A DNA stretch of 64,000 bases from a virus (taxonomy: Duplodnaviria; Caudoviricetes), in IMG/VR virus record IMGVR_UViG_3300011427_000001, positions 9,188 to 73,187 of that record; one strand, written 5' to 3'. A program made the position numbers and the translations under genes. Positions 7,952-38,737 of the stretch are shown here, piece after piece; position 1 is the stretch's first letter, and every line of letters starts with the position of its first letter. Under the pieces are notes generated by a model. That model saw nothing but the letters and a program-made list of their open reading frames with translations, had not been told where the DNA came from and did no database searches.

Positions 7952-8872
7952 TTATCGGCGGTCTTTCAGCACGGCGTAGCACGCCAGCACAAGCCCCGCC
8001 CGACCTGAGTCATAGAAGTTTTGTTTGAACACGTCCATCAGGAAGAAGGCGCGTTCGTTGCTACTGTTGAGTAGAATGCTGCTCGCGTATCCCAGCACCA
8101 AGCGGCGGATGGCCTCCGGCTCCTCATCGCAGGTCTTGATCAGCGCCGCCACTTCCGACCACGGCGTCTTGGGATTCATCAGCAGCCGTGCAATCTGAAT
8201 TGCCGCGGCCCGATGGTCGTTGTCCTCAATGGACTTCATCTGCTCCGCTGGGTCCTTGATTGACAGGATAGCGTTGAGCAGCACCAGCGCCTTGCGCGCA
8301 CTGGACTCCGAGTGCTCGACAATCTTGGTACATACTTCCTTCGAAAGGTCAAAGCGCACGAGGTCCGCAATGTCTTCCACCACGGCCTGCAGCGCCGCTG
8401 GCTTCATCGCCTTCAACCGAATCTCCGTGCAACGGGTGTTGATAGTGGGCAGCACTTTGACCGGGTCGGTCGTTGCCAGCATGAAGTAAACGTGCTTCGG
8501 GGTATCTTCCAGCATCTTGAGCAGCATGTTCTGCGCATCCTTGGTCAGCTGGTGACACTCGTCGATGAGATAGATGCGCACCTTGCCGCCTATTGGATGC
8601 AGATGCATGCGCTGCGCAATCTCGCGCACCGTGTCGATGCCCCGGAAGTTGGCTGCATTCTTCTCATCAAAGTCCTGGTCGCTGCACTCCAGCTCCTTCT
8701 GCAGGATGCGAGCCAACGTGGTCTTACCCACCCCGCTGGGACCCGTAAAGAGCATCGCATGCGGCATGGAGCCTTCATTCAAAAAGCCCTGCAGGATTTT
8801 GACCGCCTCATCCTGTCCGATGACATGCTTGAATGAAGTGGGTCGGTATTCTTTGTATAGTTCGTCGCTCAT
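7952..8872 (-). CDS. AAA+ clamp-loader subunit, DnaX gamma-like
   Basis: LYKEYRPTSF..VIGQ, GPSGVGKTT, IDECHQL, LLKMLE, TRC arginine finger; no zinc module or tau C-terminal domains. Confidence 0.9.
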   Translation of the reverse strand: MSDELYKEYRPTSFKHVIGQDEAVKILQGFLNEGSMPHAMLFTGPSGVGKTTLARILQKELECSDQDFDEKNAANFRGIDTVREIAQRMHLHPIGGKVRIYLIDECHQLTKDAQNMLLKMLEDTPKHVYFMLATTDPVKVLPTINTRCTEIRLKAMKPAALQAVVEDIADLVRFDLSKEVCTKIVEHSESSARKALVLLNAILSIKDPAEQMKSIEDNDHRAAAIQIARLLMNPKTPWSEVAALIKTCDEEPEAIRRLVLGYASSILLNSSNERAFFLMDVFKQNFYDSGRAGLVLACYAVLKDRR

Positions 8873-10380
8873 GATGGTTTCATGTTATGTTCTAGCATCT
8901 CGAGAAACTGCTCCACGTCTTCCGTGTTCACCTTGTCGTCCTTGCCCTTGGGGGTGAAGCCGAACTCAATCCCATCCCACTTAAATGGGTACTTGTGAAA
9001 CCAGGTACCGGTGGGAGGACAGATCTCATCTTCAACTTCAAGCGGACAAATGATCCACTTGAACGCCTTGCGGAGGTCTTCGTTGACCACCTGGTGCACC
9101 AAATCGAGATACTGCTTCAGTTCCTTGATGTAAACGTCACCCAGCATGCTGTCATGAACTTGCATCACCACACGTGACTTCATCTTGTGTTTGCGCAGCA
9201 ACTTATTCAGACGAGTGAGCGTCCACAGCAAGCAATGAAAGGCGCTGCCCTGCACCGGGTAGTTGATAACCTGATTGCGCCGGAACGCCCCTTCAATCCG
9301 GAAACCAGTCAACGTATCAAACCCACCTTCCTCAAGGTAGTCCTCATACCACTTCTTCTTCCACGCACTGTAGACCTTGAATCGATTGTTCCAAAAGTCA
9401 TCTTCAACCTCTTGGATGTGCTTCTCGAAAGTACCATCAAGTGGACCTCCCTTGGCTTTGGGGTCACACGCCCCCAGCTCAAAGATACCATTTGCGCGCA
9501 AATGCTCCCGCAAAGGACGGCCATCGGGACCCAACAGCTTCGCACGTTCCATCCACTCCCACAAGTCAGGGGCGCATTGCTTGTAATAGCTGCCGTAGAA
9601 CTCAGGAAACACAAACCTGTTCTTGCCACCGTAGCGATGGTTCTTGCCATACTTCTTCACCCACTCGTTCTTCAAGAAGTAAATCTGAGCTGACATGTCC
9701 CCGTGCATATCCTTGGTCGGGTCAGTCAAGTAACTAATCATGACCGGGTCTCGATGGTAGCACGTTGCAATTGAAACCTCCGCACCCTTGAAGTCATTCT
9801 CAACCAGAACGTAGTTCTGATCGGTTGCAATGAAATTGGTGCGCAGCAACTCAGCCTGCATCGGGTCACGCACTGGCACATTCTGGAAGTCCGATGACGA
9901 CCGATACGTCACCGTGGTATGCAAATCGTAATTCGGATGGAACCTCCCATTGACCAAGGTACGCTTGATGCGTTTTAGATATGTACCATGCGCCTTGTTC
10001 AGCTGAGATAGGATTTGATAGCCACGCAAGAAGTGCAGATCGATCTTTTCCAATGCACCTATCTCGACCGAAGGCTGTCCCTCCCCCTCTTCATCGCCGG
10101 TCCACTGCGTCACAGGGAACTTCATCTCACCGTACAGCACATCCCGCAACTGGTCATCGGAGTGCAAATTGGCCTTGGTGCCGAACCGCCGCTGCCAAAT
10201 CTCCCACACCTCATCCTGACGCAGCTTGTCCTCAATCCGACGCATGCGCTCCTTGGCCATCTCCGTGGTCGCATCCAACCGTCTCTCGTCAACCCTGATA
10301 CCAGTTGCCTCGATCTCAGCCAAGGCAATCATACCCTCGTGCAACAGCTGGTATCCTTTGTGTGTGTTAGGTCGTTCCAT
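8869..10380 (-). CDS. polA: family A DNA polymerase, polymerase-domain subunit
   Basis: Motif A ENDFKGAE, motif B GKNRFVFPEFYG, NYPVQGSA, motif C QVHDS. Confidence 0.92.
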   Translation of the reverse strand: MERPNTHKGYQLLHEGMIALAEIEATGIRVDERRLDATTEMAKERMRRIEDKLRQDEVWEIWQRRFGTKANLHSDDQLRDVLYGEMKFPVTQWTGDEEGEGQPSVEIGALEKIDLHFLRGYQILSQLNKAHGTYLKRIKRTLVNGRFHPNYDLHTTVTYRSSSDFQNVPVRDPMQAELLRTNFIATDQNYVLVENDFKGAEVSIATCYHRDPVMISYLTDPTKDMHGDMSAQIYFLKNEWVKKYGKNHRYGGKNRFVFPEFYGSYYKQCAPDLWEWMERAKLLGPDGRPLREHLRANGIFELGACDPKAKGGPLDGTFEKHIQEVEDDFWNNRFKVYSAWKKKWYEDYLEEGGFDTLTGFRIEGAFRRNQVINYPVQGSAFHCLLWTLTRLNKLLRKHKMKSRVVMQVHDSMLGDVYIKELKQYLDLVHQVVNEDLRKAFKWIICPLEVEDEICPPTGTWFHKYPFKWDGIEFGFTPKGKDDKVNTEDVEQFLEMLEHNMKPS

Positions 10381-11617
10381 GCAGGCTTGATTCGTTTACG
10401 TACCAAGTTGGCAACGGGTCTATCCTTAGCTTCGCCATTTGCTTCTCAGCCAGCAAATATTCAAGCAGCGTGTCAGTACCACAGTAAAGCAACAGCTGAC
10501 GAAGCTCCACTTCCTCTCGCACCCGGTTCAATACGCTACCGGCTTGGCTTTCGAGGAACTGCTTGATATGCTCATCGTACGCCTCAGCCCCCAGGTGAGC
10601 AAACGCCTGAAACTTCAACCCGCAAATGCCTTTTCGATTGTCAATCACGTGTGCTGCCAGCATGGTATCCCACAACCAATTCTGCACCGGACGCCCTGAC
10701 ACCTTGCGCGTCCACCGTTCTTCGTGTTTGAGGTTCGACGCAATGTGGTAGCAGCGTTCGGAATGCAGCAGGTCGAACGTGGCTTCAATCGCCGCTCCGT
10801 GCCAAGGGTACGCAATGGTCTTGCGTCCCCGCCAACAGGCCGAAGCACACACAATCTCACCACCCGGGGTCTCGGGCTTCAGACAGTTGTTTTCATAGTC
10901 GAACGCAATCGCCCCTCCTTTCTGTTCCATCTTGCGCAGCACTGCAGCCGCTTCGTCCGTGTCAAGCAGCACTTCAATCTGCGACTCGTAGTCTGGGACC
11001 TGTTCCCACGGTACCTCGCGATAGCTGCAGGCCTTCTCGAGATGTCGCACGAAGTCCCGGTCCATGACCTTGCTGTGCATTCGCATTAGATAGGACGGAT
11101 GGTACGTGGGGCTGATCCACACATTGGGTTTCTGGCATGGGATGTTCCAGCCAACCCAGCGAGTAATGGCACCCGGTGCCTCCTTCCAGACGTGGCCTAT
11201 CAAACTCTGCACGGGAGTGCCACCCAACAGCACAATCGAAGCGGGCTGCAACCGCTCAATCGTCGTGATCAAATTGGGGCGACAGTAGTCCACGGCCCGC
11301 TTGTCCGAAATCTTGTTGTCGGGTGGACGACAAATGAGAGCGTTCGTAGTCCAGCAGTCTTTCCTCAGGTCAATCCCAATGTGATCAAGTGCGTCTTCGA
11401 GGTAGCGACCCGCCTTGTCTACAAACTGAATGCCTTCATCGTCTTCATTCGCTCCCGGCGCTTCGCCCACGATTAAGATCCGTTTGCGACCTTCGCCGCT
11501 TGGTCGCATCTTCGGTGTCTTGCACCCCTTGTAAAGACCGCACGCCCCACACTTGGGCAATAGGCTTGCCGGTGCTTTGGTGTCCAGCAGCTCACTCCCA
11601 GCAAAAAATCCTCTCAC
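10367..11617 (-). CDS. family A DNA polymerase N-terminal subunit: family-4 UDG-like domain plus 3'-5' exonuclease
   Basis: CGACGL..GC, VGEAPG, TNALICRP, YHPSY (UDG-F4); then AFDYE, ASNLKHE, DTMLAAH, YCGTD (DnaQ-like exonuclease). Confidence 0.88.
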   Translation of the reverse strand: MRGFFAGSELLDTKAPASLLPKCGACGLYKGCKTPKMRPSGEGRKRILIVGEAPGANEDDEGIQFVDKAGRYLEDALDHIGIDLRKDCWTTNALICRPPDNKISDKRAVDYCRPNLITTIERLQPASIVLLGGTPVQSLIGHVWKEAPGAITRWVGWNIPCQKPNVWISPTYHPSYLMRMHSKVMDRDFVRHLEKACSYREVPWEQVPDYESQIEVLLDTDEAAAVLRKMEQKGGAIAFDYENNCLKPETPGGEIVCASACWRGRKTIAYPWHGAAIEATFDLLHSERCYHIASNLKHEERWTRKVSGRPVQNWLWDTMLAAHVIDNRKGICGLKFQAFAHLGAEAYDEHIKQFLESQAGSVLNRVREEVELRQLLLYCGTDTLLEYLLAEKQMAKLRIDPLPTWYVNESSLHGTT

Positions 11618-12690: not shown

Positions 12691-13167
12691 TTAGATGTGC
12701 TTCCAGGTCTGCCGTAAGACAACTGAAGATATTGTTGACGAACTCACATTGTATTGTCGTGCGAGCCGATACTGTGTCCCGCGAATACCCTTAGAAACCT
12801 GCGCTCGAATATGCAAAACAGCTTCTGACGTTAATGTGTGATTCCCCGAATCATCTCCTACGGGATGACGTGCTCGGTTCTTCTTTATGGCATCCCTCAC
12901 GTTATCTCTAGGAGAACCCACGAACAAATGTCGCGGATTCACGCACGACGGATTGTCACATCGGTGTAAAGACCATTCGGATCTCAAAAGAGGCCTTCCT
13001 AATTTCAACTCAAGTGAAAAACGATGTGCCAAGATATGATTACCCAAACCACGCCTAGGCGCTAGGCGCCCATAGCCTTTCATGTCCTTAGAACCTAGCC
13101 ACAACCAACACTCATCCAATCGGCCCTTTCGCACCTTATTCCAGAAACGCACCAGTACCGGTTTCAT
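12691..13167 (-). mobile_element. free-standing HNH homing endonuclease
   Basis: RFWNKV..CWLW.G..GYG, AHR, HRCDNPSCVNPRHL; AT-richer than its neighbours. Confidence 0.88.
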
Positions 13168-13385
13168 TTTTCTTTTGGGCGTGGACGGTAGTTGAGAATT
13201 GGACCGGGTTGCGCCTTACCCCTATTTATCAGCGACTGCTGATGCACCGCAAAACGACGCATGGTATCCCGCACTCGGCGCTGATAGATATCGTGGAAGG
13301 TAAGCATGATTGACAGCTCGTGCTGGTGCATCAACGCCTCCGGCACCACGTCTCTGCTTGAGTTGCCGCTGTAGTAGATTACCAT
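13164..13385 (-). CDS. 73-aa protein, possible detached N-terminal piece of DpdA
   Basis: MVIYYSG...IMLTF resembles the N-terminal strands of DpdA-like TIM barrels; starts 1 nt after the dpdA stop. Confidence 0.55.
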   Translation of the reverse strand: MVIYYSGNSSRDVVPEALMHQHELSIMLTFHDIYQRRVRDTMRRFAVHQQSLINRGKAQPGPILNYRPRPKEK

Positions 13386-13386
13386 G

Positions 13387-14310
13387 TTATTCGTTGAACC
13401 CGAATCCTTCGCCCCGGGTCTGGCGCATGAACGGCCAAGGCCATTGGGGCAAGCTGTCCGACATGGCCATGAAGTATCTCAAATTTGCTTCCGCTCTAGG
13501 CTTATGGTGTGTGAGCACTCCGCGTTCCACCTCGACACCGCTACCATCGTACCTACCAAGCGCGATCCCATGCAGGGACAGCCACGCAAGCATAATTTCC
13601 CGTTCCTTTGACGATACGGTGGTGATATGCTTGCCCTGCTCCTTCATGTTTGGGGACTTCCCGCTCATCGTAATTGAGTAGGGCTTCTCGTCGAAAACGA
13701 ACTTCCCGCCGCGCTGATGGGGGACGTAGACCGTACCAAAAGCCGCAGCCTTAATCCAGCTGGCGCTGTCCACACTCCACCACGGGTACCTCCGCATGAG
13801 GTCCCAGCTCGTCATCGCAAACCCATGCGTCTTGACGACGGGGAACTTGTCGTTGCTGGCTGGACAGATGAGATGGAACACGCGGTCGGCCCAGCCGTAG
13901 TATTCGTCCTTCGTTACCTCCTGTCCCAGTCCACCAATTCCGAGAAAGTCATAACCCCGCTCAAGGTAGTGGGTAATCCATTTGAGGGGAGTGCCAAAGT
14001 GGATAACGGGGACCGGACGCAGACCGTGTTCCCTTTCGAGATACTGCTGAACTTTCCACGTGACCTCTGGGTTAAAGATAGCGTCGACGTTGGCGTAAAA
14101 GTCCATCGCCCAACCGAAGCGTTTGATAAAACCAGCGTAGCTGTCACAGTAGGCATAGAATTCATCAGTCTCGTAGAACTTGTAACCGTTTCGCCCCTTG
14201 AGATCTATCACCTCTCGCGTGTAGATACTGTGCGCTCCGCTATCGAGAAAGAAACTACCCACTGCGGTGGGGATGTTCTCCAGAGGATGCGGTTCTTTGA
14301 GCTTGGTCAT
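13387..14310 (-). CDS. dpdA: DpdA, 7-deazaguanine DNA transglycosylase (TGT-like)
   Basis: FLDSGA, NVD, PVIHFG, GIGG, HGF, DSASW motifs; located in the que gene cluster. Confidence 0.85.
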   Translation of the reverse strand: MTKLKEPHPLENIPTAVGSFFLDSGAHSIYTREVIDLKGRNGYKFYETDEFYAYCDSYAGFIKRFGWAMDFYANVDAIFNPEVTWKVQQYLEREHGLRPVPVIHFGTPLKWITHYLERGYDFLGIGGLGQEVTKDEYYGWADRVFHLICPASNDKFPVVKTHGFAMTSWDLMRRYPWWSVDSASWIKAAAFGTVYVPHQRGGKFVFDEKPYSITMSGKSPNMKEQGKHITTVSSKEREIMLAWLSLHGIALGRYDGSGVEVERGVLTHHKPRAEANLRYFMAMSDSLPQWPWPFMRQTRGEGFGFNE

Positions 14311-15452
14311 ATCTGCGCGTGCCAGATGTTTACTTCATTGTCTGGGTTGCGCAGCCCGCACACAATTTCAGCTTCAAGAACACGACCGGCATCACATTGC
14401 ATTGCAATTGACCTGAAACCAAGGCACCGACACTGCACCTTTTCACTGAGAAGACGCAACACTGACCTCATGTCAAAAGCCTGATACATGTTCTGCGCCG
14501 GCAGTATTTCCGGAAAGCTCCGGAAGTGGGGATACACCAGGTTACACCCCGCAATGCACGCCTCCAACAGCGTCCACGAAACGTAGTCTTGCAAGGAGCA
14601 GTTGAATTGAATGGCCGCAGTGGCAAGCTCATTGTAATACTGCTCCTTCGTGAGACCCGAAAGCAGTTTGAACCGCGGCTCGTCTTGTGCGAACTCGACA
14701 ATCTCCTTCAGCGTCTCGGGTTCGTTCGAGCGGAAGTCAGCTGCACTGGTCGTCACACACCAAGTCCAGTCCTTGTACCTCAGCAAGAACAAACGAGCCA
14801 CTTCAAGCATGAACCTTGGGTTCTTCTCTCGATCCAGCCTCGAGGTAAAAACTACCTTCCGTTCACGCTGCGACAGCATGGCCGGCATCTGTGCTTCCAC
14901 CGCACTGACTGAAATGGGTAAGCCCACCACATGGATAGGACATTCAAAGCCGGCAACGCGCAACTGGTCACGATGAATAGTGCTACCAACAAAGACCGCA
15001 GTGTGCACTCGGGACAAGCCCACTTCCATGGGACGCATCCAATGGCGCATGCCCCACGTGAAGTCGTATTCATCCACGCTCTGCGCATGCAGCATCGAGT
15101 AGATCTTCACTCCGGTCAGCCCGTACAAGTGCAGCGCATACGGCACAGCCTCAAACCCCGGTGTCCAGAAGTCCTGCAGAAAAATGGCATCGTCGTTGCT
15201 GACCGACCCGCTCCGGATCTCACGCATGAAATTCTCAACCTGTCGACAAGCATACATCCCACGACCAGTGGCATCCAGCACCGCCCCCACCGTAATCTGC
15301 GCCTCCACCTGACAGCCTTCAATCTTAACAAACAGCGTCGAAGGAGAGACCGCTGCCACTGCTTTGGGAAACCAGTCTTCGCAGAGCTGCTTCGTATATC
15401 GTGCAGCCAGCGGTTCAAGTCCAAAATAGAACAGTCTTCGAATGGGCTTCAT
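14307..15452 (-). CDS. GT-B glycosyltransferase (GT4-like)
   Basis: Start reassigned to MKPIRRLFYFGLE (TAATG overlap); VFTSRLDREKNP and EACIAGC...FPE donor-binding region. Confidence 0.8.
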   Translation of the reverse strand: MKPIRRLFYFGLEPLAARYTKQLCEDWFPKAVAAVSPSTLFVKIEGCQVEAQITVGAVLDATGRGMYACRQVENFMREIRSGSVSNDDAIFLQDFWTPGFEAVPYALHLYGLTGVKIYSMLHAQSVDEYDFTWGMRHWMRPMEVGLSRVHTAVFVGSTIHRDQLRVAGFECPIHVVGLPISVSAVEAQMPAMLSQRERKVVFTSRLDREKNPRFMLEVARLFLLRYKDWTWCVTTSAADFRSNEPETLKEIVEFAQDEPRFKLLSGLTKEQYYNELATAAIQFNCSLQDYVSWTLLEACIAGCNLVYPHFRSFPEILPAQNMYQAFDMRSVLRLLSEKVQCRCLGFRSIAMQCDAGRVLEAEIVCGLRNPDNEVNIWHAQI

Positions 15453-16216
15453 TAATAGAATAGTCCGCGACGCTTCGGACACGCGGATTCGTGCACAAAG
15501 ATCCGGTCGCGCATGCGGGACAGAACCACAGTTGGATCTTCCAGTGGGGCTAGGTCTGTCGTGTATGCCAGGTACCCACGGGCGCGCAGCAACGTCCAAA
15601 TGTCTGCAGGAGTGTCACTGTACCTCTTGAGGAACTCTGGTACCTGCTCAAGCACAATGACCGGACGACTGTCCGCGAGAATGCGCTGAGCCCCTTTCAG
15701 CACTTTGAGTTCGTACCCCTCAACGTCTATCTTGAGTACGTCAACCAGGGTGTTAAGACGAACACAGTCGTCAAGGCGCTCAAGCGGGACCAAGGTACCC
15801 ATCGTCCCTTTGCCCACATGTCCACCCAGATGGGCTGTAGGCGTTGACACAATCCGAATTTCGCTCTGCTCGGCCCCCAACGCACAATTCTCGGACTTCA
15901 CGTTCGATACTTTGTTGTCAGCCAAGTTCCGCACCAGAAGCGCATAGATGTTCGGGTCGGCCTCGAATGATTGCACCTGTCTGGCCCACCCCGAGAAAGT
16001 CAGAGCGGTCTGTCCTACGTTGGCACCTACGTCCAACACCAAACCCGCACCCGGCTTCAAACGCTTGAGCGAGGCCAACGTCACCGCCCCATAGACCTTG
16101 GCGTAGGTGAGCAGTTTGGCCCGCTCATCCTGTTTTGGCATCCAGTACGTAAATCCCGAGCGCGCTTTGATCTGCTCAACCGGGAAGGGAACCTTGGGTG
16201 GGGTCTGCTCAGACAT
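15452..16216 (-). CDS. FkbM-family SAM methyltransferase
   Basis: LDVGANVG, FEADP, KIDVEGYELKVLKGA; start reassigned to MSEQTP. Confidence 0.88.
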   Translation of the reverse strand: MSEQTPPKVPFPVEQIKARSGFTYWMPKQDERAKLLTYAKVYGAVTLASLKRLKPGAGLVLDVGANVGQTALTFSGWARQVQSFEADPNIYALLVRNLADNKVSNVKSENCALGAEQSEIRIVSTPTAHLGGHVGKGTMGTLVPLERLDDCVRLNTLVDVLKIDVEGYELKVLKGAQRILADSRPVIVLEQVPEFLKRYSDTPADIWTLLRARGYLAYTTDLAPLEDPTVVLSRMRDRIFVHESACPKRRGLFY

Positions 16217-17048
16217 CCTGATCCTGGTCGAAGTCGGGGTGGTGCAACCACGTTTCCCATTTCGTGTTGAACGCACGATTGTACCAACTGATCGTTTCGT
16301 CTTGAACCTGCTTGAACATGAGATGGTCGACAAGTGACTTGACTTGAACCTTGGCGTAGTCCTCCGGACGCAAGCCCATCAGAATTACATGCCCCAAAAC
16401 CGGGCTCAAGTGATTCACCGCCAGCTTCTCCAGCAAAGCCAACGCCGGGGACACTCCCAAGAACTCAATATCGACTTTCAGGTTGTGTTGTTGCGCCTGC
16501 ACCAACGCCTCGAGAATAAGCGGGTTGTCCACCGTGCGCAACCGTCTGTTCCCCGCCCCCAAGTAAACCCGGTGCAGGCCCGCGGCTTTCTTTCCAATGG
16601 TCTCTGCCATTGCCGCATGCCCGATCCCATCAGGAACAAACAGCACGCGCTCACCTCGAGAGGGGCCTTCGAGCTCTTGACCGATAAACATGCGCGACTT
16701 CTGCATCGTGGGCATGACACTGCGCACTACCACGGCACCGTTCTCGCCGTCTTCGCTCACTTCACAATAGATGCCTCGAAAACGGCACAAGACCAGCGAC
16801 GCAATGTGCTCGCACGAGAGTTCAAACTGTTTCGTCGCTAACACCGGGTGTCCACTTTCGAGGTAGTCATCCAACAGTCGTTTCAGTTGGAAAAACTCAA
16901 TATCCCGGTTATCGTGCTTGACCGGCATGCCCAGCTTGACATGGAAGACATGTCTGTGCCAATTGCGCAGGAAGACAACGTCTTCGGGTGCATCCACCCA
17001 ACGGTGCTGCGCTTCAAACCGCGTTTGAATATAGATTTGAGTACTCAT
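16209..17048 (-). CDS. DpdL-like QueD paralogue (T-fold) fused to a C-terminal domain of unknown function
   Basis: LRNWHRHVF fits the LxxxHRHxF signature I recall for the CDG decarboxylase DpdL; extra domain of about 150 aa begins FIGQELEG. Confidence 0.7.
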   Translation of the reverse strand: MSTQIYIQTRFEAQHRWVDAPEDVVFLRNWHRHVFHVKLGMPVKHDNRDIEFFQLKRLLDDYLESGHPVLATKQFELSCEHIASLVLCRFRGIYCEVSEDGENGAVVVRSVMPTMQKSRMFIGQELEGPSRGERVLFVPDGIGHAAMAETIGKKAAGLHRVYLGAGNRRLRTVDNPLILEALVQAQQHNLKVDIEFLGVSPALALLEKLAVNHLSPVLGHVILMGLRPEDYAKVQVKSLVDHLMFKQVQDETISWYNRAFNTKWETWLHHPDFDQDQDV

Positions 17049-17914
17049 TCAGAAAGTTCAGCGTAGGCATCGTGGTAGTGTATGCTCTCCGCATTATCCA
17101 CGCGAACCGTAAAGTGCTTCACAGTTGGCATCTGCCGCAGTTGACAAGCCATGTCCCGCACCACGTCTTCCACGAACTTGGGATTATCGTATGCCCCCAT
17201 CGTCACCGCTCGCTCATCGGGACGCTTGAGCACCGGGTAGATCGGATGGGAGAAAGCACGCCAGGCCGCATGCACTAGCATCTCAAACCAGACTACCTTG
17301 TCCGGCTCGTGCTGCACTAAGACCGAAATCTTGCTGCGCTGGGCATGTGCTCCTTTGCCCATCCCGGTTGCAGCGTTGAAGTCACTTATCTCCCGCGAAC
17401 AGGGGCAGCACGTCTTCCCTTGAACCTCGACGCCAGTGTGCGTGACAAAGGCAAAACGATCTTCCGGCGTCCGCACACACTCAATCTGCAGGATACCTTT
17501 CAGCGGAGCTGTCCCCGCACACTTGGTAACCGGGGCCTCCTGCGACATGAAGTAATCGACCGTGACCTGCAGGAACACCCGACGGGTCTCCAGCTTCTCC
17601 GCCAACTGCAAAGCCACAGTCTGCAGATCAAGGCTACTGAAGGTGCCATCGGCCAGAATGTGTTGGTTGAGCACTTGAGTGAAACGACTCATGTGGGTGC
17701 CCTTCACTTCCGCACTGAGCGAACAGGCGAGCTCGAACTCACCCACCGTGTCAAGCACTGTCAACGCCGGTGTTTTGCCATCCACAGACGACGGGGCACG
17801 CAACACTCGGATGGGCAAACGGATGCCCGTCACCCCGACGCGTTTGATGAAGACATCGCGTGTGTCGAGTGTCCGTTGAATGTCCGGCAGTACGCTGACT
17901 GGTGTGTTGCTCAT
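17045..17914 (-). CDS. folE2: GTP cyclohydrolase I type B (FolE2)
   Basis: KGTHMSRF, TCCPCS, AHAQRS, NPKFVEDVVRD, ESIHYHDAYA. Confidence 0.93.
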   Translation of the reverse strand: MSNTPVSVLPDIQRTLDTRDVFIKRVGVTGIRLPIRVLRAPSSVDGKTPALTVLDTVGEFELACSLSAEVKGTHMSRFTQVLNQHILADGTFSSLDLQTVALQLAEKLETRRVFLQVTVDYFMSQEAPVTKCAGTAPLKGILQIECVRTPEDRFAFVTHTGVEVQGKTCCPCSREISDFNAATGMGKGAHAQRSKISVLVQHEPDKVVWFEMLVHAAWRAFSHPIYPVLKRPDERAVTMGAYDNPKFVEDVVRDMACQLRQMPTVKHFTVRVDNAESIHYHDAYAELSE

Positions 17915-18447
17915 GTGTGTCCTAGTATCTTACGAACGCGATGTTCTTTCTTATGACACTTTTGACAAAGTGTGATTCCGTTCGAGATATCAAAACGCAA
18001 TTCAGGATACTCAACCCAAGGTTTGATATGATGTGCATGTAAATGACCTCCCTTAGCAGGACATTTTTGGCATTTGTAACCGTCACGTTCCTTAACTGCC
18101 AAGGCCCACAATTTACCTTGGAATGATTCTCGATCCAACTGTGCACCCGGGTCCCTATCCTCTGGATAGTACCCGTATCTTTTCTTGTAGATCCTCCGAG
18201 CGGCTTCAACACCATGAATCTGAACCATCGTCTTTCCCTTACGTTGTAATGAAATCGCAGCCCGCCTTTCAGGTGTCATCGACTTCTTAACTGCTTTCGA
18301 AATTGATTGGCAGCGTTGCTCATGGGTTTTCTTCCAGTTTCTAGAAACACCCCTTGCCTGCTTCTTACGATATGAAGCACGTGACCAACGCTTCTTCGCA
18401 GCCGCCACCTGCTTCACACGAGTACTTTCAGGCGTACTCGACCTCAT
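17911..18447 (-). mobile_element. free-standing HNH endonuclease inserted between queE and folE2
   Basis: ERDGYKCQKC, HAHHIKP, NGITLCQKCH; basic N-terminal DNA-binding arm; AT-richer. Confidence 0.85.
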
Positions 18448-19127
18448 TGAGAAGAGCCAAGCACCGGATTACCACCAAGCGGAACCATTGGCTGTGTTCT
18501 TCTATCTAACGTATCAACTCGAAATAATTTGTGCAACTGATATCCAACCCGGTAAGGTTCACCCGCTACCTTCACAAATTCACTTATGGTATTCAAGATG
18601 GCCGGGTCGTTCCGCTTGCTCCACTCGGGGTGCAACCAAATGGGTTGTCCATGATACTGTGGCGTCGACAGCATGCGTGCCCAATGCGAAGGAGCTTCGA
18701 CCGAATCCACAATTACCTTGAATTCATTCGCCGCAAAAACGTTCTCGGGGAGGGGAAGCTTCGCCGCTTTAGGTGACAGCGTAATCCAATCGAAGGTCCC
18801 CTTGATTTCAAAGCAGCCCGCCGTCTCGAGGTGCGCTGCTCGGCCCAAGTCATGCAGCGTAGCGGTCAGCAGTCGCAAGTCGTGAATGGTGGGTTCGCCT
18901 CCGGTCACGACCGCGAAGGATGCGTTGGTTTCAAGCATCTCATTCACCAACTCTATCTCGGACAGCCGGTCAACGTGAGCTGGGACGTAGTCCTTATGCC
19001 ACGTCCCGGCGCTGTCGCACCAAGGACAGTGCAGTGGACAACCGAAAGTGCGGATGAAAAAAGCAGGTCGACCCATGTGGACCCCTTCACCCTGCCACGT
19101 GTAAAATCTTTCGTGAATGGGAAGCAT
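18444..19127 (-). CDS. queE: QueE, 7-carboxy-7-deazaguanine synthase (radical SAM)
   Basis: IHERFYTWQGEG, GCPLHCPWCD, TGGEP, LET, TLSPK; start reassigned to MLPIHE. Confidence 0.93.
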   Translation of the reverse strand: MLPIHERFYTWQGEGVHMGRPAFFIRTFGCPLHCPWCDSAGTWHKDYVPAHVDRLSEIELVNEMLETNASFAVVTGGEPTIHDLRLLTATLHDLGRAAHLETAGCFEIKGTFDWITLSPKAAKLPLPENVFAANEFKVIVDSVEAPSHWARMLSTPQYHGQPIWLHPEWSKRNDPAILNTISEFVKVAGEPYRVGYQLHKLFRVDTLDRRTQPMVPLGGNPVLGSSQ

Positions 19128-19131
19128 TGCC

Positions 19132-19629
19132 TTAATACTCTGCGGTGGCGCTGTTCTTGCTGTCTTCGTAGACAGTGACCTTCGATATCCTAACCGACCG
19201 ACGAACACAGTCTTGATCCGCATGCACTCCCAACTTATGGAAGAACACCGCATTGACCGTATCCAGCAACCACCGGGCCAGCCCCTCGCAACTGCAATCA
19301 GGCACGGAAATGATTTTGGCCAATTCAATGGACGATGGGCTGGTTGGGTCAAAACGAACTTCGGTCAACTGCTCCTGCAGATACCCAAGAAACGGGTCAC
19401 TCGCATTGAGCACCAGGGTATGGTCAAAATGGTCCTCAAGCCACTTGCGCAGTTTCTTGAGCTTCCCAAAGTCCACCACAAACCCAGTCCCCGCTTCAAG
19501 TTCAGCACACACAAAGGTCAGTTCGAGTGACCAATTATGCCCATGCAAGAGAGCACAGTGCCCATCGTGGGCCGGCTGGCGGTGTGCAAACGGGAACTCC
19601 GGGAACAGTTTGGTGATGCTTGTCTTCAT
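19132..19629 (-). CDS. queD: QueD, 6-carboxy-5,6,7,8-tetrahydropterin synthase
   Basis: AHR...CALLHGHNW (Cx3HGH), VVDFG, FDHT, SCEGLA, YED. Confidence 0.92.
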   Translation of the reverse strand: MKTSITKLFPEFPFAHRQPAHDGHCALLHGHNWSLELTFVCAELEAGTGFVVDFGKLKKLRKWLEDHFDHTLVLNASDPFLGYLQEQLTEVRFDPTSPSSIELAKIISVPDCSCEGLARWLLDTVNAVFFHKLGVHADQDCVRRSVRISKVTVYEDSKNSATAEY

Positions 19630-35595: not shown

Positions 35596-38259
35596 TTACG
35601 GAACTTCCACCAAGATGTAAGAATAGGTCGAGGTATCTAGGATGTTGTCACTAGTAAGTGTAAAGCTGGTGGCCGCAATCACCGTATATGTCACCGACAT
35701 ACCAATCGTTCCACCCGCCGTTTTGCGAGTGACGTAGACTCGAGTGTTGGCGGTAACGGTGGTATTGTTGACTGTGACTGTACCGCCCACCAACACAGCG
35801 TCACCGGCGCGCTGGTTCGTACCACTGGCAATAGAAATCAACTTACCAACAGACTGGATGAGATCACCACCTAGATACATCTTCTTGGCTACAGCCAAAC
35901 CCCCCGCGTGCATCACCGAAGCAGCGGTGGTCGAAGTGGCTTCCGTTGCGTCGGTCGTCGAGAGGACGCCCCCCATATAAAGAGCACCACTAATCCCAAC
36001 ACCACCTGTGACAACGAACGTTCCCGTTGTCGTACTAGTGGAAGCAATGTTCTTGAGTAACGATAGCTGGCCACTTGTGCCGGTCAATTTCATCGCACAC
36101 GCTAACGACGTCTCCACTGACCAAAGGAAGCTCTGGCTATTGCCATTTATGGCAAAGCACATATCCCCAACAATACTTCCCGTGATGATAGAATTTGCTG
36201 CACCCGCTGCGCCAAAACTAATTCCAGCCGGACCATCATTGTGCGGTTGAAAGGTAATTAAGGTCGACGTGTTCGTCGTCGCTTTAATGTAAAGCCGACT
36301 TGTCCCGCTCGTCGGGAATATCAACACATTGCTCTGGATAGGAACCGTACCCGTCGAAGACCCGCCCCATGAGATACCCGCATTCGCAGTTTGCAGGCTA
36401 AACCCGATTGCCGTCGTGGAGTGTGTGTTAAATAGGATTCTTTGGCTATTGCCCGCCACGCTGATGCACATATCACCAACGGCACTGCTTGCAATGGTAT
36501 CACCTGCTGCCCCTTCCGCCGTGATCTGAACCGCCGCCGGATTGTCATTATGTGCCTGAAGCAAAAGACGCGCTCGCGCGTTGGTCGTCGCCTTAACCGC
36601 CAAGGTTGCAAGTCCGCTAGACGGAAACACCGACACGTTCGCCTTTATTGGCATGGTCCCCGTTGTCCCGCCACCCCATGAAATACCCGCGTTGGCAGAT
36701 TCGATAGCAAAGCCGATTGCCGCTCCAGTTGCCGTTCCAGTGAGAAACCTCTGACTATTTCCGTTGATGAACAGACAAATATCACCCGCTGCGGCGCCAG
36801 TGAGTAATGAATTAGCTACACCCGTCTGTCCGAATGAAACGCCCGCTCCTGCATAGTTATTTGCTCGCCAGTCCATCCATGTTGATGTGCCCGCTGCCGC
36901 TTTCATCATCAAAACTGAGTCACCACTGGCCGGGGACACCGTTAAGCTGGAATTGACCGTCACAACCCCTGCCCCTTTTGGAGTTAGTGAAATGCTGATG
37001 TCGGTATCGCCGCCTGTGGCGGATAAGATAGGTGCAACTCCAGTAGCAGCATTAGTGATGGTGAACTCGTTTACCGCCGAGCCGGTCGCCGTGACTTTGA
37101 AAATCTCATTCCCGTTGGTATCATTCAGCGCCGTAATTAACTTCGGCGAGGTCAGCGTCAACGTCGTGCCGTCTGTAGTGGCATTCGTGATACCACCAAA
37201 GGCGCCTCCGTTGTTGTATTGCACCTGCGTCGTGGAACCGCCAGCCGAAGTGGACAGAGATGTCGGGTTGACATATTCAAGCGCCGTCGCACCGGCATTG
37301 ACGCGTAGTAGATACAAAGCAGTTCCAAGGGCCGTGAGCGCCGTTCCGCCCTGTGCTACCGCCACCGTATTTAACGCCGTCGATAGAATCTTACCAGCCG
37401 CATCGGTCAACGTCGTCGGTCCGCTACCTGTCTTCAGCAAGCCGGCCACGGTTAGAGTGTCAGTGGTTTTATTATAGACCAACCCCGCGTCACCTGCCAG
37501 AGCTCCACTATCATTGAACTGAACTTGCGTGTCTGACCCGGCTACCGTGGCGGAAGGAGCTACAAACTCAAAAGCAGTGGCACCCGCATTTACTCGTAAC
37601 AGGTACAATGCTGTACCCAATGCGGTCAATCCAGTTCCACCCTGCGCCACGGCTACTGTATTGAGGGAGGCGCTAAGAATCTTTCCTGTGGCATCAGTCA
37701 ATGTGGTGGGGCCACTGCCGGTTTTCAACAGACCCGCCACGGTCAAGGTGTCAGTCGTTTTGTTATACGTCAGCCCAGCATCACCGGCCAACACTCCAGC
37801 ATCGTTAAACTGAACCTGGGTATCCGAACCAGCCACTACCGCAGCAGGTGCCGCCCATTCCATTTGGGTAGCTCCTGCGTTTACTCGCAGCACGTACAAT
37901 GCGGCACCAAGCGCGAGTTTGCCCACGGTATTAGTGGCGCTGCCGTAAAGCAGGTCGCCTTGCGTGATGCTCGTTTGTCCCGTGCCGCCCAGCGTAGCAG
38001 GCACACTCGCAAGCTCCTGGATTGCTCCAGTGCCAGCAGTCGTACGACCAAGGATCTTTGCCGTCGACATCGTCAACCCTGATGTGGTAATCGACTGTCC
38101 TGATGTTATGATAGGAACACCACCGGCAGTTGTACCATCACCCATGACCAGACGCTTCGTGTCGAAGTACCAACCCAACTCACCTTCATCCAGCACCACG
38201 GCGCCTAGGTTAGCTTCCGTGTCCCGCCGCTGTAGCATTTTGCGAAAAATTGTGCTCAT
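35596..38259 (-). CDS. tail fibre / receptor-binding protein with internal repeats
   Basis: Mtd-like N-terminus (QRRDT..L..VVLDEGELG...KRLVMGDGTT); Gly/Thr/Ala-rich; 97-aa and 103-aa repeats. Confidence 0.85.
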   Translation of the reverse strand: MSTIFRKMLQRRDTEANLGAVVLDEGELGWYFDTKRLVMGDGTTAGGVPIITSGQSITTSGLTMSTAKILGRTTAGTGAIQELASVPATLGGTGQTSITQGDLLYGSATNTVGKLALGAALYVLRVNAGATQMEWAAPAAVVAGSDTQVQFNDAGVLAGDAGLTYNKTTDTLTVAGLLKTGSGPTTLTDATGKILSASLNTVAVAQGGTGLTALGTALYLLRVNAGATAFEFVAPSATVAGSDTQVQFNDSGALAGDAGLVYNKTTDTLTVAGLLKTGSGPTTLTDAAGKILSTALNTVAVAQGGTALTALGTALYLLRVNAGATALEYVNPTSLSTSAGGSTTQVQYNNGGAFGGITNATTDGTTLTLTSPKLITALNDTNGNEIFKVTATGSAVNEFTITNAATGVAPILSATGGDTDISISLTPKGAGVVTVNSSLTVSPASGDSVLMMKAAAGTSTWMDWRANNYAGAGVSFGQTGVANSLLTGAAAGDICLFINGNSQRFLTGTATGAAIGFAIESANAGISWGGGTTGTMPIKANVSVFPSSGLATLAVKATTNARARLLLQAHNDNPAAVQITAEGAAGDTIASSAVGDMCISVAGNSQRILFNTHSTTAIGFSLQTANAGISWGGSSTGTVPIQSNVLIFPTSGTSRLYIKATTNTSTLITFQPHNDGPAGISFGAAGAANSIITGSIVGDMCFAINGNSQSFLWSVETSLACAMKLTGTSGQLSLLKNIASTSTTTGTFVVTGGVGISGALYMGGVLSTTDATEATSTTAASVMHAGGLAVAKKMYLGGDLIQSVGKLISIASGTNQRAGDAVLVGGTVTVNNTTVTANTRVYVTRKTAGGTIGMSVTYTVIAATSFTLTSDNILDTSTYSYILVEVP

Positions 38260-38278
38260 ATAGAAAGGTACGGATGGG

Positions 38279-38737
38279 TTATAGAGGAGGAGTGCCCTCG
38301 ATCTCAATACTAGGTTCGTAAGAACCGCCGCCATCAATCACATCGGTAAGGGCTGACGATGCATCACCGCCATCAATTACTCCGTCATCACTGCTACCTC
38401 CACCTACGGGAAATTGGAGCCAATCGTCAATCGTTTCACCTCGATTTGAGATGCAGACAAAAACTGCACCAGTATCACCAATGTCAGTGCGAAAGCACAT
38501 ATCGAATGGATGCACGCTACGGTCCGACGTCTCATGCAGCGCCAACATCGTTGCTTCATCACCTACGGACAAATCAGCACCGTGAAACACGGGCGCGACA
38601 ATCGTGCCCTCTAAAAAGACCCGCTTCTGGTCGGACGTCGTGTGCAGTTCATTTGCAAGCAGACGACCATGAGACTGAATGAACTGCCGCTGCAGGTCGG
38701 TACCCGATAGAGGGATTATTCTAGGAAAGGTTGGCAT
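38279..38737 (-). CDS. hypothetical virion-module protein
   Basis: Start reassigned to MPTFPR; ends with IDGG repeats common in tail accessory proteins. Confidence 0.55.
   Translation of the reverse strand: MPTFPRIIPLSGTDLQRQFIQSHGRLLANELHTTSDQKRVFLEGTIVAPVFHGADLSVGDEATMLALHETSDRSVHPFDMCFRTDIGDTGAVFVCISNRGETIDDWLQFPVGGGSSDDGVIDGGDASSALTDVIDGGGSYEPSIEIEGTPPL

Follow-up and report, generated by a model that had tools for sequence, protein, structure and literature searches.

We examined a 64,000-nucleotide stretch of tailed-phage DNA (hereafter the window), which comprises bases 9188-73187 of the 73,187-bp IMG/VR virus genome IMGVR_UViG_3300011427_000001. Between positions 13164 and 19629 its minus strand carries a run of nine genes encoding QueD, QueE, an HNH endonuclease, FolE2, a DpdL-like protein, an FkbM methyltransferase, a GT-B glycosyltransferase, DpdA and an open reading frame (ORF) of 73 amino acids (aa; Table 1). 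Sequence comparisons suggest, with a probability that we place at roughly 0.55, that this operon is a QueC-less, DpdL-type 7-deazaguanine DNA-modification system to which a tailoring module has been added.

The locus and its genes

The complete genome bears direct terminal repeats, has a CheckV completeness of 100 and encodes a tape-measure protein and a J-like tail fibre; DNA of the phage is present in freshwater-sediment metagenomes. The operon is embedded in a replisome module comprising helicase, primase, sliding clamp, polymerase and clamp loader, and a terminator-like hairpin (19751-19737) lies ahead of queD. A 41-base "repeat" upstream of queD, hinted at by a Logan contig, proved to be single-copy in the genome.

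Queuing of the nine genes as a translationally coupled run had been claimed in a preliminary description of this DNA. All of the ORFs were found on the minus strand, with junctions ranging from -8 to +4 bases: QueD and QueE are separated by +4 bases, and the subsequent junctions, from QueE through to a second HNH gene at the far end, measure -4, -4, -4, -8, -1, -4, +1 and -4 bases. As most start codons in the operon overlap the stop of the gene before, the coupling is real.

The same description had reported the absence of QueC and QueF from the window. This absence extends to the whole genome, in which neither PF06508 (QueC) nor PF14489 (QueF) found a match and which is likewise devoid of Gat-QueC. 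With the pathway families and their catalytic motifs intact, the proposal of a QueC-less deazaguanine system of the DpdL type is upheld. QueD displays its CxxxHGH motif as CALLHGH at residue 25, and the 227-aa QueE its CxxxCxxC motif as CPLHCPWC at residue 30; the latter protein scores 92.6 bits against TIGR04322, under the NCBIfam equivalog cut-off of 200.

Table 1. Features of the operon and its flank, with coordinates in the window and the basis of each assignment.
Feature	Coordinates	Strand	Basis
QueD (6-carboxytetrahydropterin synthase), 165 aa	19132-19629	-	PF01242 83.3 bits, phrog_2389 4.9e-30
QueE (radical-SAM CDG synthase), 227 aa	18444-19127	-	phrog_2076 2.7e-34
HNH homing-type endonuclease, within operon	17911-18447	-	PF01844 2.7e-10
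FolE2 (GTP cyclohydrolase IB), 289 aa	17045-17914	-	PF02649 234.6 bits, NF010200 214.6 bits
DpdL domain, residues 1-112 of 279-aa protein	16713-17048	-	QueD-like T-fold, proposed CDG decarboxylase
C-terminal domain ("pseudo-QueE"), residues 113-279	16209-16712	-	QueE-like half-barrel without cysteines
FkbM-family SAM methyltransferase, 254 aa	15452-16216	-	PF05050, TIGR01444
GT-B glycosyltransferase, retaining-family-like, 381 aa	14307-15452	-	weak Glycos_transf_1 match and model
DpdA (DNA guanine transglycosylase), short DpdA1-like, 307 aa	13387-14310	-	phrog_887 3.1e-36
Basic ORF, 73 aa, pI 10.3	13164-13385	-	homologue after dpdA in L006-L009
Second HNH endonuclease, beside operon	12691-13167	-	phrog_59 2.2e-23
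SAM, S-adenosylmethionine; CDG, 7-carboxy-7-deazaguanine; L006-L009, the four loci most closely related to the window.

The DpdL-like protein, whose whole gene occupies 16209-17048 on the minus strand, consists of two domains. DpdL has been described as a QueD paralogue in which LxxxHRHxF replaces CxxxHGH (PMC10516641). Residues 5-108 of the window protein match phrog_17812, the motif is present as LRNWHRHVF at residues 27-35, and the domain is 37% identical to DpdL of Cellulophaga phage phiST (CGPG_00067), with H15, H31, H33, E51 and E99 invariant. Its model, with a predicted local distance difference test (pLDDT) score of 95, aligns across residues 2-108 with a 6-pyruvoyltetrahydropterin synthase (3qn0; Z 12.5). 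The domain is co-encoded with FolE-type, QueD, QueE and DpdA genes and without QueC.

The window DpdA resembles DpdA1 of Enterobacteria phage 9g (33% identity, 81% coverage), and tblastn found 181 phage records, 9g included, at 33-35% identity. It had no Pfam match at E 0.01 and thus did not reach the cut-off of the tRNA-guanine transglycosylase (TGT) domain PF01702; a long DpdA encoded beside the glycosyltransferase in another locus (L010) scores 27 bits against that family, for which the cut-off is 26.3. The 9g enzyme inserts preQ0 (7-cyano-7-deazaguanine; PMC10516641).

Linkage of the glycosyltransferase to deazaguanine clusters

A tblastn search of 50,697 phage records with the 381-aa glycosyltransferase (GT) as query found relatives in seven, belonging to six phages: Synechococcus BUCT-ZZ01, Xanthomonas X1 and BUDD, Burkholderia BCSR5, Acidovorax ACP17 (two records) and Sinorhizobium Phosso. 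A DpdL match lies at most 4 kb from the GT in all seven of these cultured-phage records, and the annotated maps of all carriers but BUDD place the GT among FolE, QueD, QueE, DpdL and a DpdA of approximately 440 aa.

The family comprises at least 890 proteins and occurs on 260 IMG/VR contigs. We fetched 80 of these contigs, clustered the ORFs of 86 loci in all without recourse to annotation, and counted neighbours in the 65 loci with enough flank. A TGT-family DpdA of about 400 aa (PF01702) comes immediately after the GT in 55 of the 65, a protein of about 140 aa (cluster c2) lies upstream of it in 52, and DpdL is immediately upstream in 34. Viewed from the opposite side, DpdL is carried by at least 545 viral contigs, and in 57 of 80 DpdL-anchored loci a GT lies no more than 7 kb off (median distance 601 bases); the GT is missing from eight DpdL loci that are flanked on each side by 5 kb or more. 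Among 185,579 prokaryote genomes the family was encountered on just four short contigs of metagenome-assembled genomes.

The GT co-occurs with two types of DpdA, a long type (clusters c1/k139) and the short DpdA1-like type, which suggests that it follows the base pathway and not one transglycosylase. The preliminary description had proposed that linkage of such a GT to dpdA be sought in other phages, and the adjacency counted above recurs across many unrelated ones. Judged by these neighbourhoods, the glycosyltransferase genuinely belongs to the deazaguanine pathway. Further sugar genes are found in sister clusters: BUCT-ZZ01 has a second GT, BCSR5 a PIG-L deacetylase with a clustered homologue in X1, and marine contigs a cytidylyltransferase. 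The sugar itself probably differs between lineages. A marine subgroup that appeared to possess the GT and lack DpdL was discounted: DpdL lies about 24 kb away in one of its contigs, and the others are 12-36% complete.

The AlphaFold model of the GT (pLDDT 90) adopts a GT-B fold with two Rossmann domains. Foldseek matched it to GT4 enzymes at 1e-12, with SenB also among the small-molecule GT-B matches, and fold comparison yielded Z-scores of 26.1 for sucrose-phosphate synthase, 25.2 for BshA and 23.1 for tetrahydrobiopterin (BH4) glucosyltransferase. PimA/PimB' and glycogen synthase also match (Z 23-26 over 310-340 residues), as does the T4 alpha-glucosyltransferase 1y6f (Z 20.1, root-mean-square deviation 4.5, 324 residues). 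Sequence searches of the PDB gave no useful match for either the GT or FkbM. Some GT homologues of about 50% identity carry PF00534. SRLDxEKNP, R205, K210 and the pair D289-x7-E297 are invariant in 37 diverse homologues, and we read the first and last of these as a putative nucleotide-sugar site; R205 and K210 would correspond to the donor-binding Arg/Lys, and D289-x7-E297 to the E-x7-E-type motif, of canonical enzymes.

The GT is the only one in the genome, and whole-genome searches for sugar-nucleotide synthesis genes, a thymidylate-synthase homologue or a C5-methylase found none. The donor must therefore be host-derived, and no route was found to the hydroxymethyl-pyrimidine acceptors used by the known DNA glycosyltransferases of phages.

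Additional genes accompany the GT in some of the cultured phages. X1 (L003, 5338-6526) and BCSR5 (L004, 4981-6525) share a homologous gene pair just upstream of pseudo-QueE and the GT, one member of which is PAPS (3'-phosphoadenosine 5'-phosphosulfate)-reductase/ATP-pyrophosphatase-like by Pfam (scanned in X1) and the other PIG-L N-acetylglucosamine (GlcNAc) deacetylase-like (scanned in BCSR5). The pair is a candidate for further tailoring steps, and its PIG-L member hints at a GlcNAc donor. The BUCT-ZZ01 cluster (L001, 1093-1554 and 3010-4353) holds an annotated xanthine-guanine phosphoribosyltransferase, and its second glycosyltransferase (447 aa) belongs to the GT1 family.

The pseudo-QueE domain

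Residues 113-279 of the DpdL-like protein matched neither Pfam nor PHROG; a word-index search returned the domain's self-match only, and a protein atlas just barrel-like rows of low template-modelling score. A full HMMER search recovered 129 representative homologues, 59 of them free-standing (130-180 aa); of the 70 long ones, 69 bear the DpdL domain at the N-terminus. The corresponding hidden Markov model also matches 59 members of the c2 cluster described above and both of the proteins (cluster k187) that immediately precede the GT in X1 and BCSR5, and the small proteins and the C-terminal domain therefore constitute one family. Pseudo-QueE was detected in 25 DpdL-anchored loci, and all 25 carry the GT. 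The suggestion in the preliminary description that the extra domain of the DpdL-like protein might take part in the modification thus gains substance, in that the domain belongs to the module. In phiST neither pseudo-QueE nor the GT was found. CGPG_00066, which lies between dpdL and dpdA3 in that phage, was considered as a pseudo-QueE and rejected, since it reads as a P-loop protein.

The model of the domain is a half (beta/alpha) barrel whose best fold matches are the QueE structures 5tgs (Z 7.6, 138 aa) and 4njg (Z 7.0), values that lie within the range of chance folds. An invariant N-terminal G-x-E-x-E-G-P...LFVP pattern aligns with the QGEG...FIR of QueE (hhalign P 0.0012, across 23 columns). 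True QueE binds a 4Fe-4S cluster through cysteines, whereas the window domain, at some 165 residues, contains no cysteine, is missing the cluster-binding motif and is not a QueE; it would therefore hold no such cluster and perform no radical chemistry. Taken together, model and alignment indicate that the domain is probably a QueE descendant which retains the pterin- or deazapurine-binding face and is incapable of radical chemistry. Its fusion to DpdL argues that both domains act on one ligand. The fusion also brings two formerly separate puzzles together in one enzyme, and it defines a minimal gene set.

Comparison with known systems

Among the closest characterized counterparts is that of phiST, in which dG is fully replaced by 2'-deoxy-7-deazaguanosine (dDG) and which encodes FolE, QueD, QueE, DpdA3 and DpdL (Cui, Hutinet et al., NAR 2023, PMC10516641). 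The window shares with it a FolE-type enzyme, QueD, QueE, a DpdL with the LxxxHRHxF motif, a DpdA and the lack of QueC. It differs in its DpdL::pseudo-QueE fusion, its short 9g-like DpdA and its FolE2, whereas phiST has DpdA3, a type-I FolE and no GT, pseudo-QueE or FkbM. Phages 9g and CAjan, which carry 2'-deoxyarchaeosine (dG+) and 2'-deoxy-7-cyano-7-deazaguanosine (dPreQ0), possess QueC or Gat-QueC and insert preQ0, while the window genome has neither gene.

Glycosylation of DNA by phages offers a second comparison. The alpha- and beta-glucosyltransferases of T4 and the glycosyltransferases of phages with 5-hydroxymethylcytosine (5hmC) DNA are likewise GT-B enzymes encoded next to base-modification genes (bioRxiv 10.1101/2023.12.21.572611). 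These enzymes, however, add the sugar to a pyrimidine through its hydroxymethyl group, whereas the partner genes of the window GT would make a purine analogue. To our knowledge, all natural glycosylations of DNA are on hydroxymethyl-pyrimidines. In the galactosyl- and mannosyl-queuosine of animal tRNA, the sugar joins a 7-deazaguanine derivative that already sits in the nucleic acid, with the cyclopentenediol as acceptor; the window phage, by contrast, has no means of making the queuosine side chain.

A third counterpart lies outside phages. The huimycin and dapiramicin clusters, like the window, place a GT (HuiG in huimycin) and a SAM methyltransferase (HuiC) beside FolE, QueD and QueE homologues for 7-deazaguanine (PMC7439116). 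They are nevertheless secondary-metabolite clusters of actinomycetes in which QueC is present, DpdA is lacking and the sugar is placed on N2 of the free base. The huimycin methyltransferase, moreover, belongs to PF08241 and that of the window to FkbM.

Proposed chemistry

We consider it somewhat better than an even chance, going by sequence, that the operon makes 7-deazaguanine in the manner of phiST and then adds a sugar to it, which in this phage is probably O-methylated. From family membership, FolE2, QueD and QueE would convert GTP to CDG. By analogy with phiST, the DpdL domain, together with its fused pseudo-QueE lacking an iron-sulfur cluster, would convert CDG to 7-deazaguanine, which DpdA, to go by its homology to DpdA1, would exchange for guanine in phage DNA after replication. 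The GT-B enzyme may then take a sugar from a nucleotide sugar of the host and attach it to the deazaguanine, most likely on its C7 (major-groove) side; that it does so after insertion into DNA is our guess. FkbM would O-methylate the sugar in the window phage, and the resulting (methyl)glycosylated deazaguanine would hide phage DNA from host nucleases. Phage DNA should tolerate a sugar at the C7 position, which faces the major groove.

A sugar on a 7-deazapurine would, if confirmed, constitute a new class of DNA base, and would confront restriction enzymes, CRISPR nucleases and anti-phage glycosylases with a new target or a new obstacle. Such a sugar could also account for a reported failure: expression of dpdL and dpdA of ACP17 in E. 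coli yielded no dDG, and the authors suggested that other enzymes might be missing (PMC10516641). That paper mentions no glycosyltransferase, and the GT of ACP17 lies between these very genes, dpdA and dpdL. The module is common, given the 260 viral contigs with the GT and at least 545 with DpdL, and six carrier phages are in culture.

Several points weigh against this reading. Firstly, the decarboxylation of CDG by DpdL is a proposal, and heterologous tests of it failed (PMC10516641). Secondly, the window GT matches Glycos_transf_1 of Pfam at 19.2 bits, under the curated cut-off of 26.4, and its family is acidic (median pI 5.4, window GT 6.3), which does not suggest DNA binding. Thirdly, 7-deazaguanine has no heteroatom at C7, so that a sugar there would need C-glycosylation or some other, unseen handle, and we know of no C-glycosyltransferase among the GT-B enzymes matched by the fold searches. 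Fourthly, no account of the DNA chemistry of ACP17 or X1 came up in full-text searches, which likewise listed nothing relevant for BCSR5, BUCT-ZZ01 or Phosso and no paper on glycosylated deazaguanine in DNA. Lastly, FkbM is missing from the closest relatives of the window (L006-L009) and from all of the other 85 GT loci, and its best protein relative is 38% identical, with none close in viral or metagenome contigs; the role assigned to it consequently rests on little.

As to how the third of these difficulties might be met, the product may possibly be a C-glycoside at C7, perhaps formed with loss of the CDG carboxyl. Such a bond could arise by electrophilic substitution on 7-deazaguanine or by ipso-substitution of the carboxyl of CDG with loss of CO2. 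A specific version, in which pseudo-QueE presents the substrate, the GT-B enzyme joins the sugar by carbon to C7 and FkbM then O-methylates it, strikes us as a long shot. If true, a glycosylated purine would be a first for DNA of any kind, and the reaction would be of a type new to GT4-like enzymes.

The FkbM methyltransferase

Membership of the FkbM family is clear from the scores (PF05050, 67.9 bits against a cut-off of 22.7; TIGR01444, 99.1 against 37.7) and from SAM motif I, which reads VLDVGANVG. Enzymes of this family are mostly O-methyltransferases, often acting on sugars. The gene may nonetheless be unrelated cargo that acts on neither the modified base nor its sugar. We judge this unlikely, though it deserves to be taken seriously: the absence from all other GT loci and the distance of the best relative speak for it, as do the two HNH genes, which show that the operon accepts insertions. 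These genes, however, are betrayed by their GC content at third codon positions (GC3; 0.42 and 0.47), whereas FkbM, at 0.66, is like its neighbours, which it overlaps by 8 and 1 bases. Contigs of independent sediment runs (X2, X3) span both the GT/FkbM and the FkbM/DpdL junctions. Relatives of the gene occur in just 37 of the 50,697 phage records.

A second case also argues against cargo. One of the 80 DpdL-anchored loci, the unrelated cluster L150, encodes an FkbM protein (PF05050, 63 bits) sharing 25% identity with that of the window and sitting between a long DpdA and pseudo-QueE; the relatives of this locus, L156 and L121, are without FkbM. The two occurrences are independent recruitments and suggest an optional tailoring step. 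The linkage of FkbM to dpdA implied by the preliminary description was nearly lost, given its absence from 85 GT loci; what survives is the second case in L150, the tight coupling and the native composition. L150 (846-1787 and 4157-5086) also encodes a weakly Methyltransf_23-like protein and a 309-aa protein of unassigned family next to FkbM.

Alternative roles for the glycosyltransferase

The sugar may instead be attached before insertion, to the free base or to an intermediate, either on N2 as by HuiG or on a pterin as by BH4 glucosyltransferase. The product would then be inserted by DpdA or would remain a soluble metabolite, and FkbM would methylate base or sugar. HuiG (PF13439), which is proposed to transfer GlcNAc onto the 2-amino group of 7-deazaguanine in company with the SAM methyltransferase HuiC (PMC7439116; bioRxiv 10.64898/2026.04.15.718813), is the one natural precedent that we found for a glycosyltransferase acting on 7-deazaguanine, and as such supports this alternative. 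The small-molecule enzymes among the best fold matches of the GT (BshA, SenB and BH4 glucosyltransferase) are in keeping with it, as are the acidity of the family and the descent of DpdL and, probably, of pseudo-QueE from binders of free pterin or deazapurine. Against these stand the position of the GT, adjoining dpdA in 55 of 65 loci and lying inside a replisome module, and its match to the T4 alpha-glucosyltransferase, an enzyme that acts on DNA. Furthermore, an N2 sugar in the minor groove should, we infer, impede replication and transcription, and a hexose-bearing base would be expected to fit the pocket of a transglycosylase poorly. On balance, glycosylation ahead of insertion seems to us decidedly unlikely.

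It is less probable still that the phage makes only dDG or its 7-carboxy counterpart (dCDG), with GT, pseudo-QueE and FkbM serving as scaffold, in transient activation, in self-protection or on a host envelope glycan: phiST does reach 100% dDG without GT or pseudo-QueE (PMC10516641), the eight well-flanked DpdL loci manage without a GT, and FkbM and GT4 families are common in the synthesis of surface glycans, but the putative donor-site residues of the GT are invariant across its diverse homologues, the family is in viruses limited to deazaguanine clusters, and more sugar-tailoring genes recur beside it.

Neighbouring genes and other observations

The closest relatives of the window, L006-L009, whose GT is 64% identical, have the order QueD-QueE-FolE-DpdL::pseudo-QueE-GT-DpdA-small ORF. 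The small ORF corresponds to the 73-aa ORF of the window (30% identity, E 1e-4). A type-I FolE occupies the slot of FolE2 in these loci and is also present in all of the cultured carriers examined; by gene order, FolE2 for FolE is a non-orthologous replacement in the same operon slot.

Both HNH genes are missing from L006-L009 and overlap their neighbours by 4 bases. The gene within the operon has a GC content of 0.46, and a GC3 as given above of 0.42, against approximately 0.54 and 0.65 in its neighbours; the gene beside the operon has a GC content of 0.48 and the GC3 of 0.47. Given their low GC and their absence from the closest relatives, they look like recent homing insertions that preserved the coupling.

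Two further features of the window lie outside the operon. The DNA polymerase (8869-11617, minus strand) is encoded by two ORFs of 416 and 503 aa with a 14-base overlap, which match consecutive stretches (476-829 and 834-1277) of one PHROG polymerase profile. This arrangement recurs in L006-L009 (425 and 507 aa), so that it looks less like an error than like a true split or a programmed frameshift. A 913-aa tail-fibre protein (35596-38337, minus strand) has a C-terminal region resembling polysaccharide deacetylases (phrog_24355, 8.5e-13), which suggests a receptor-modifying enzyme carried on the virion.

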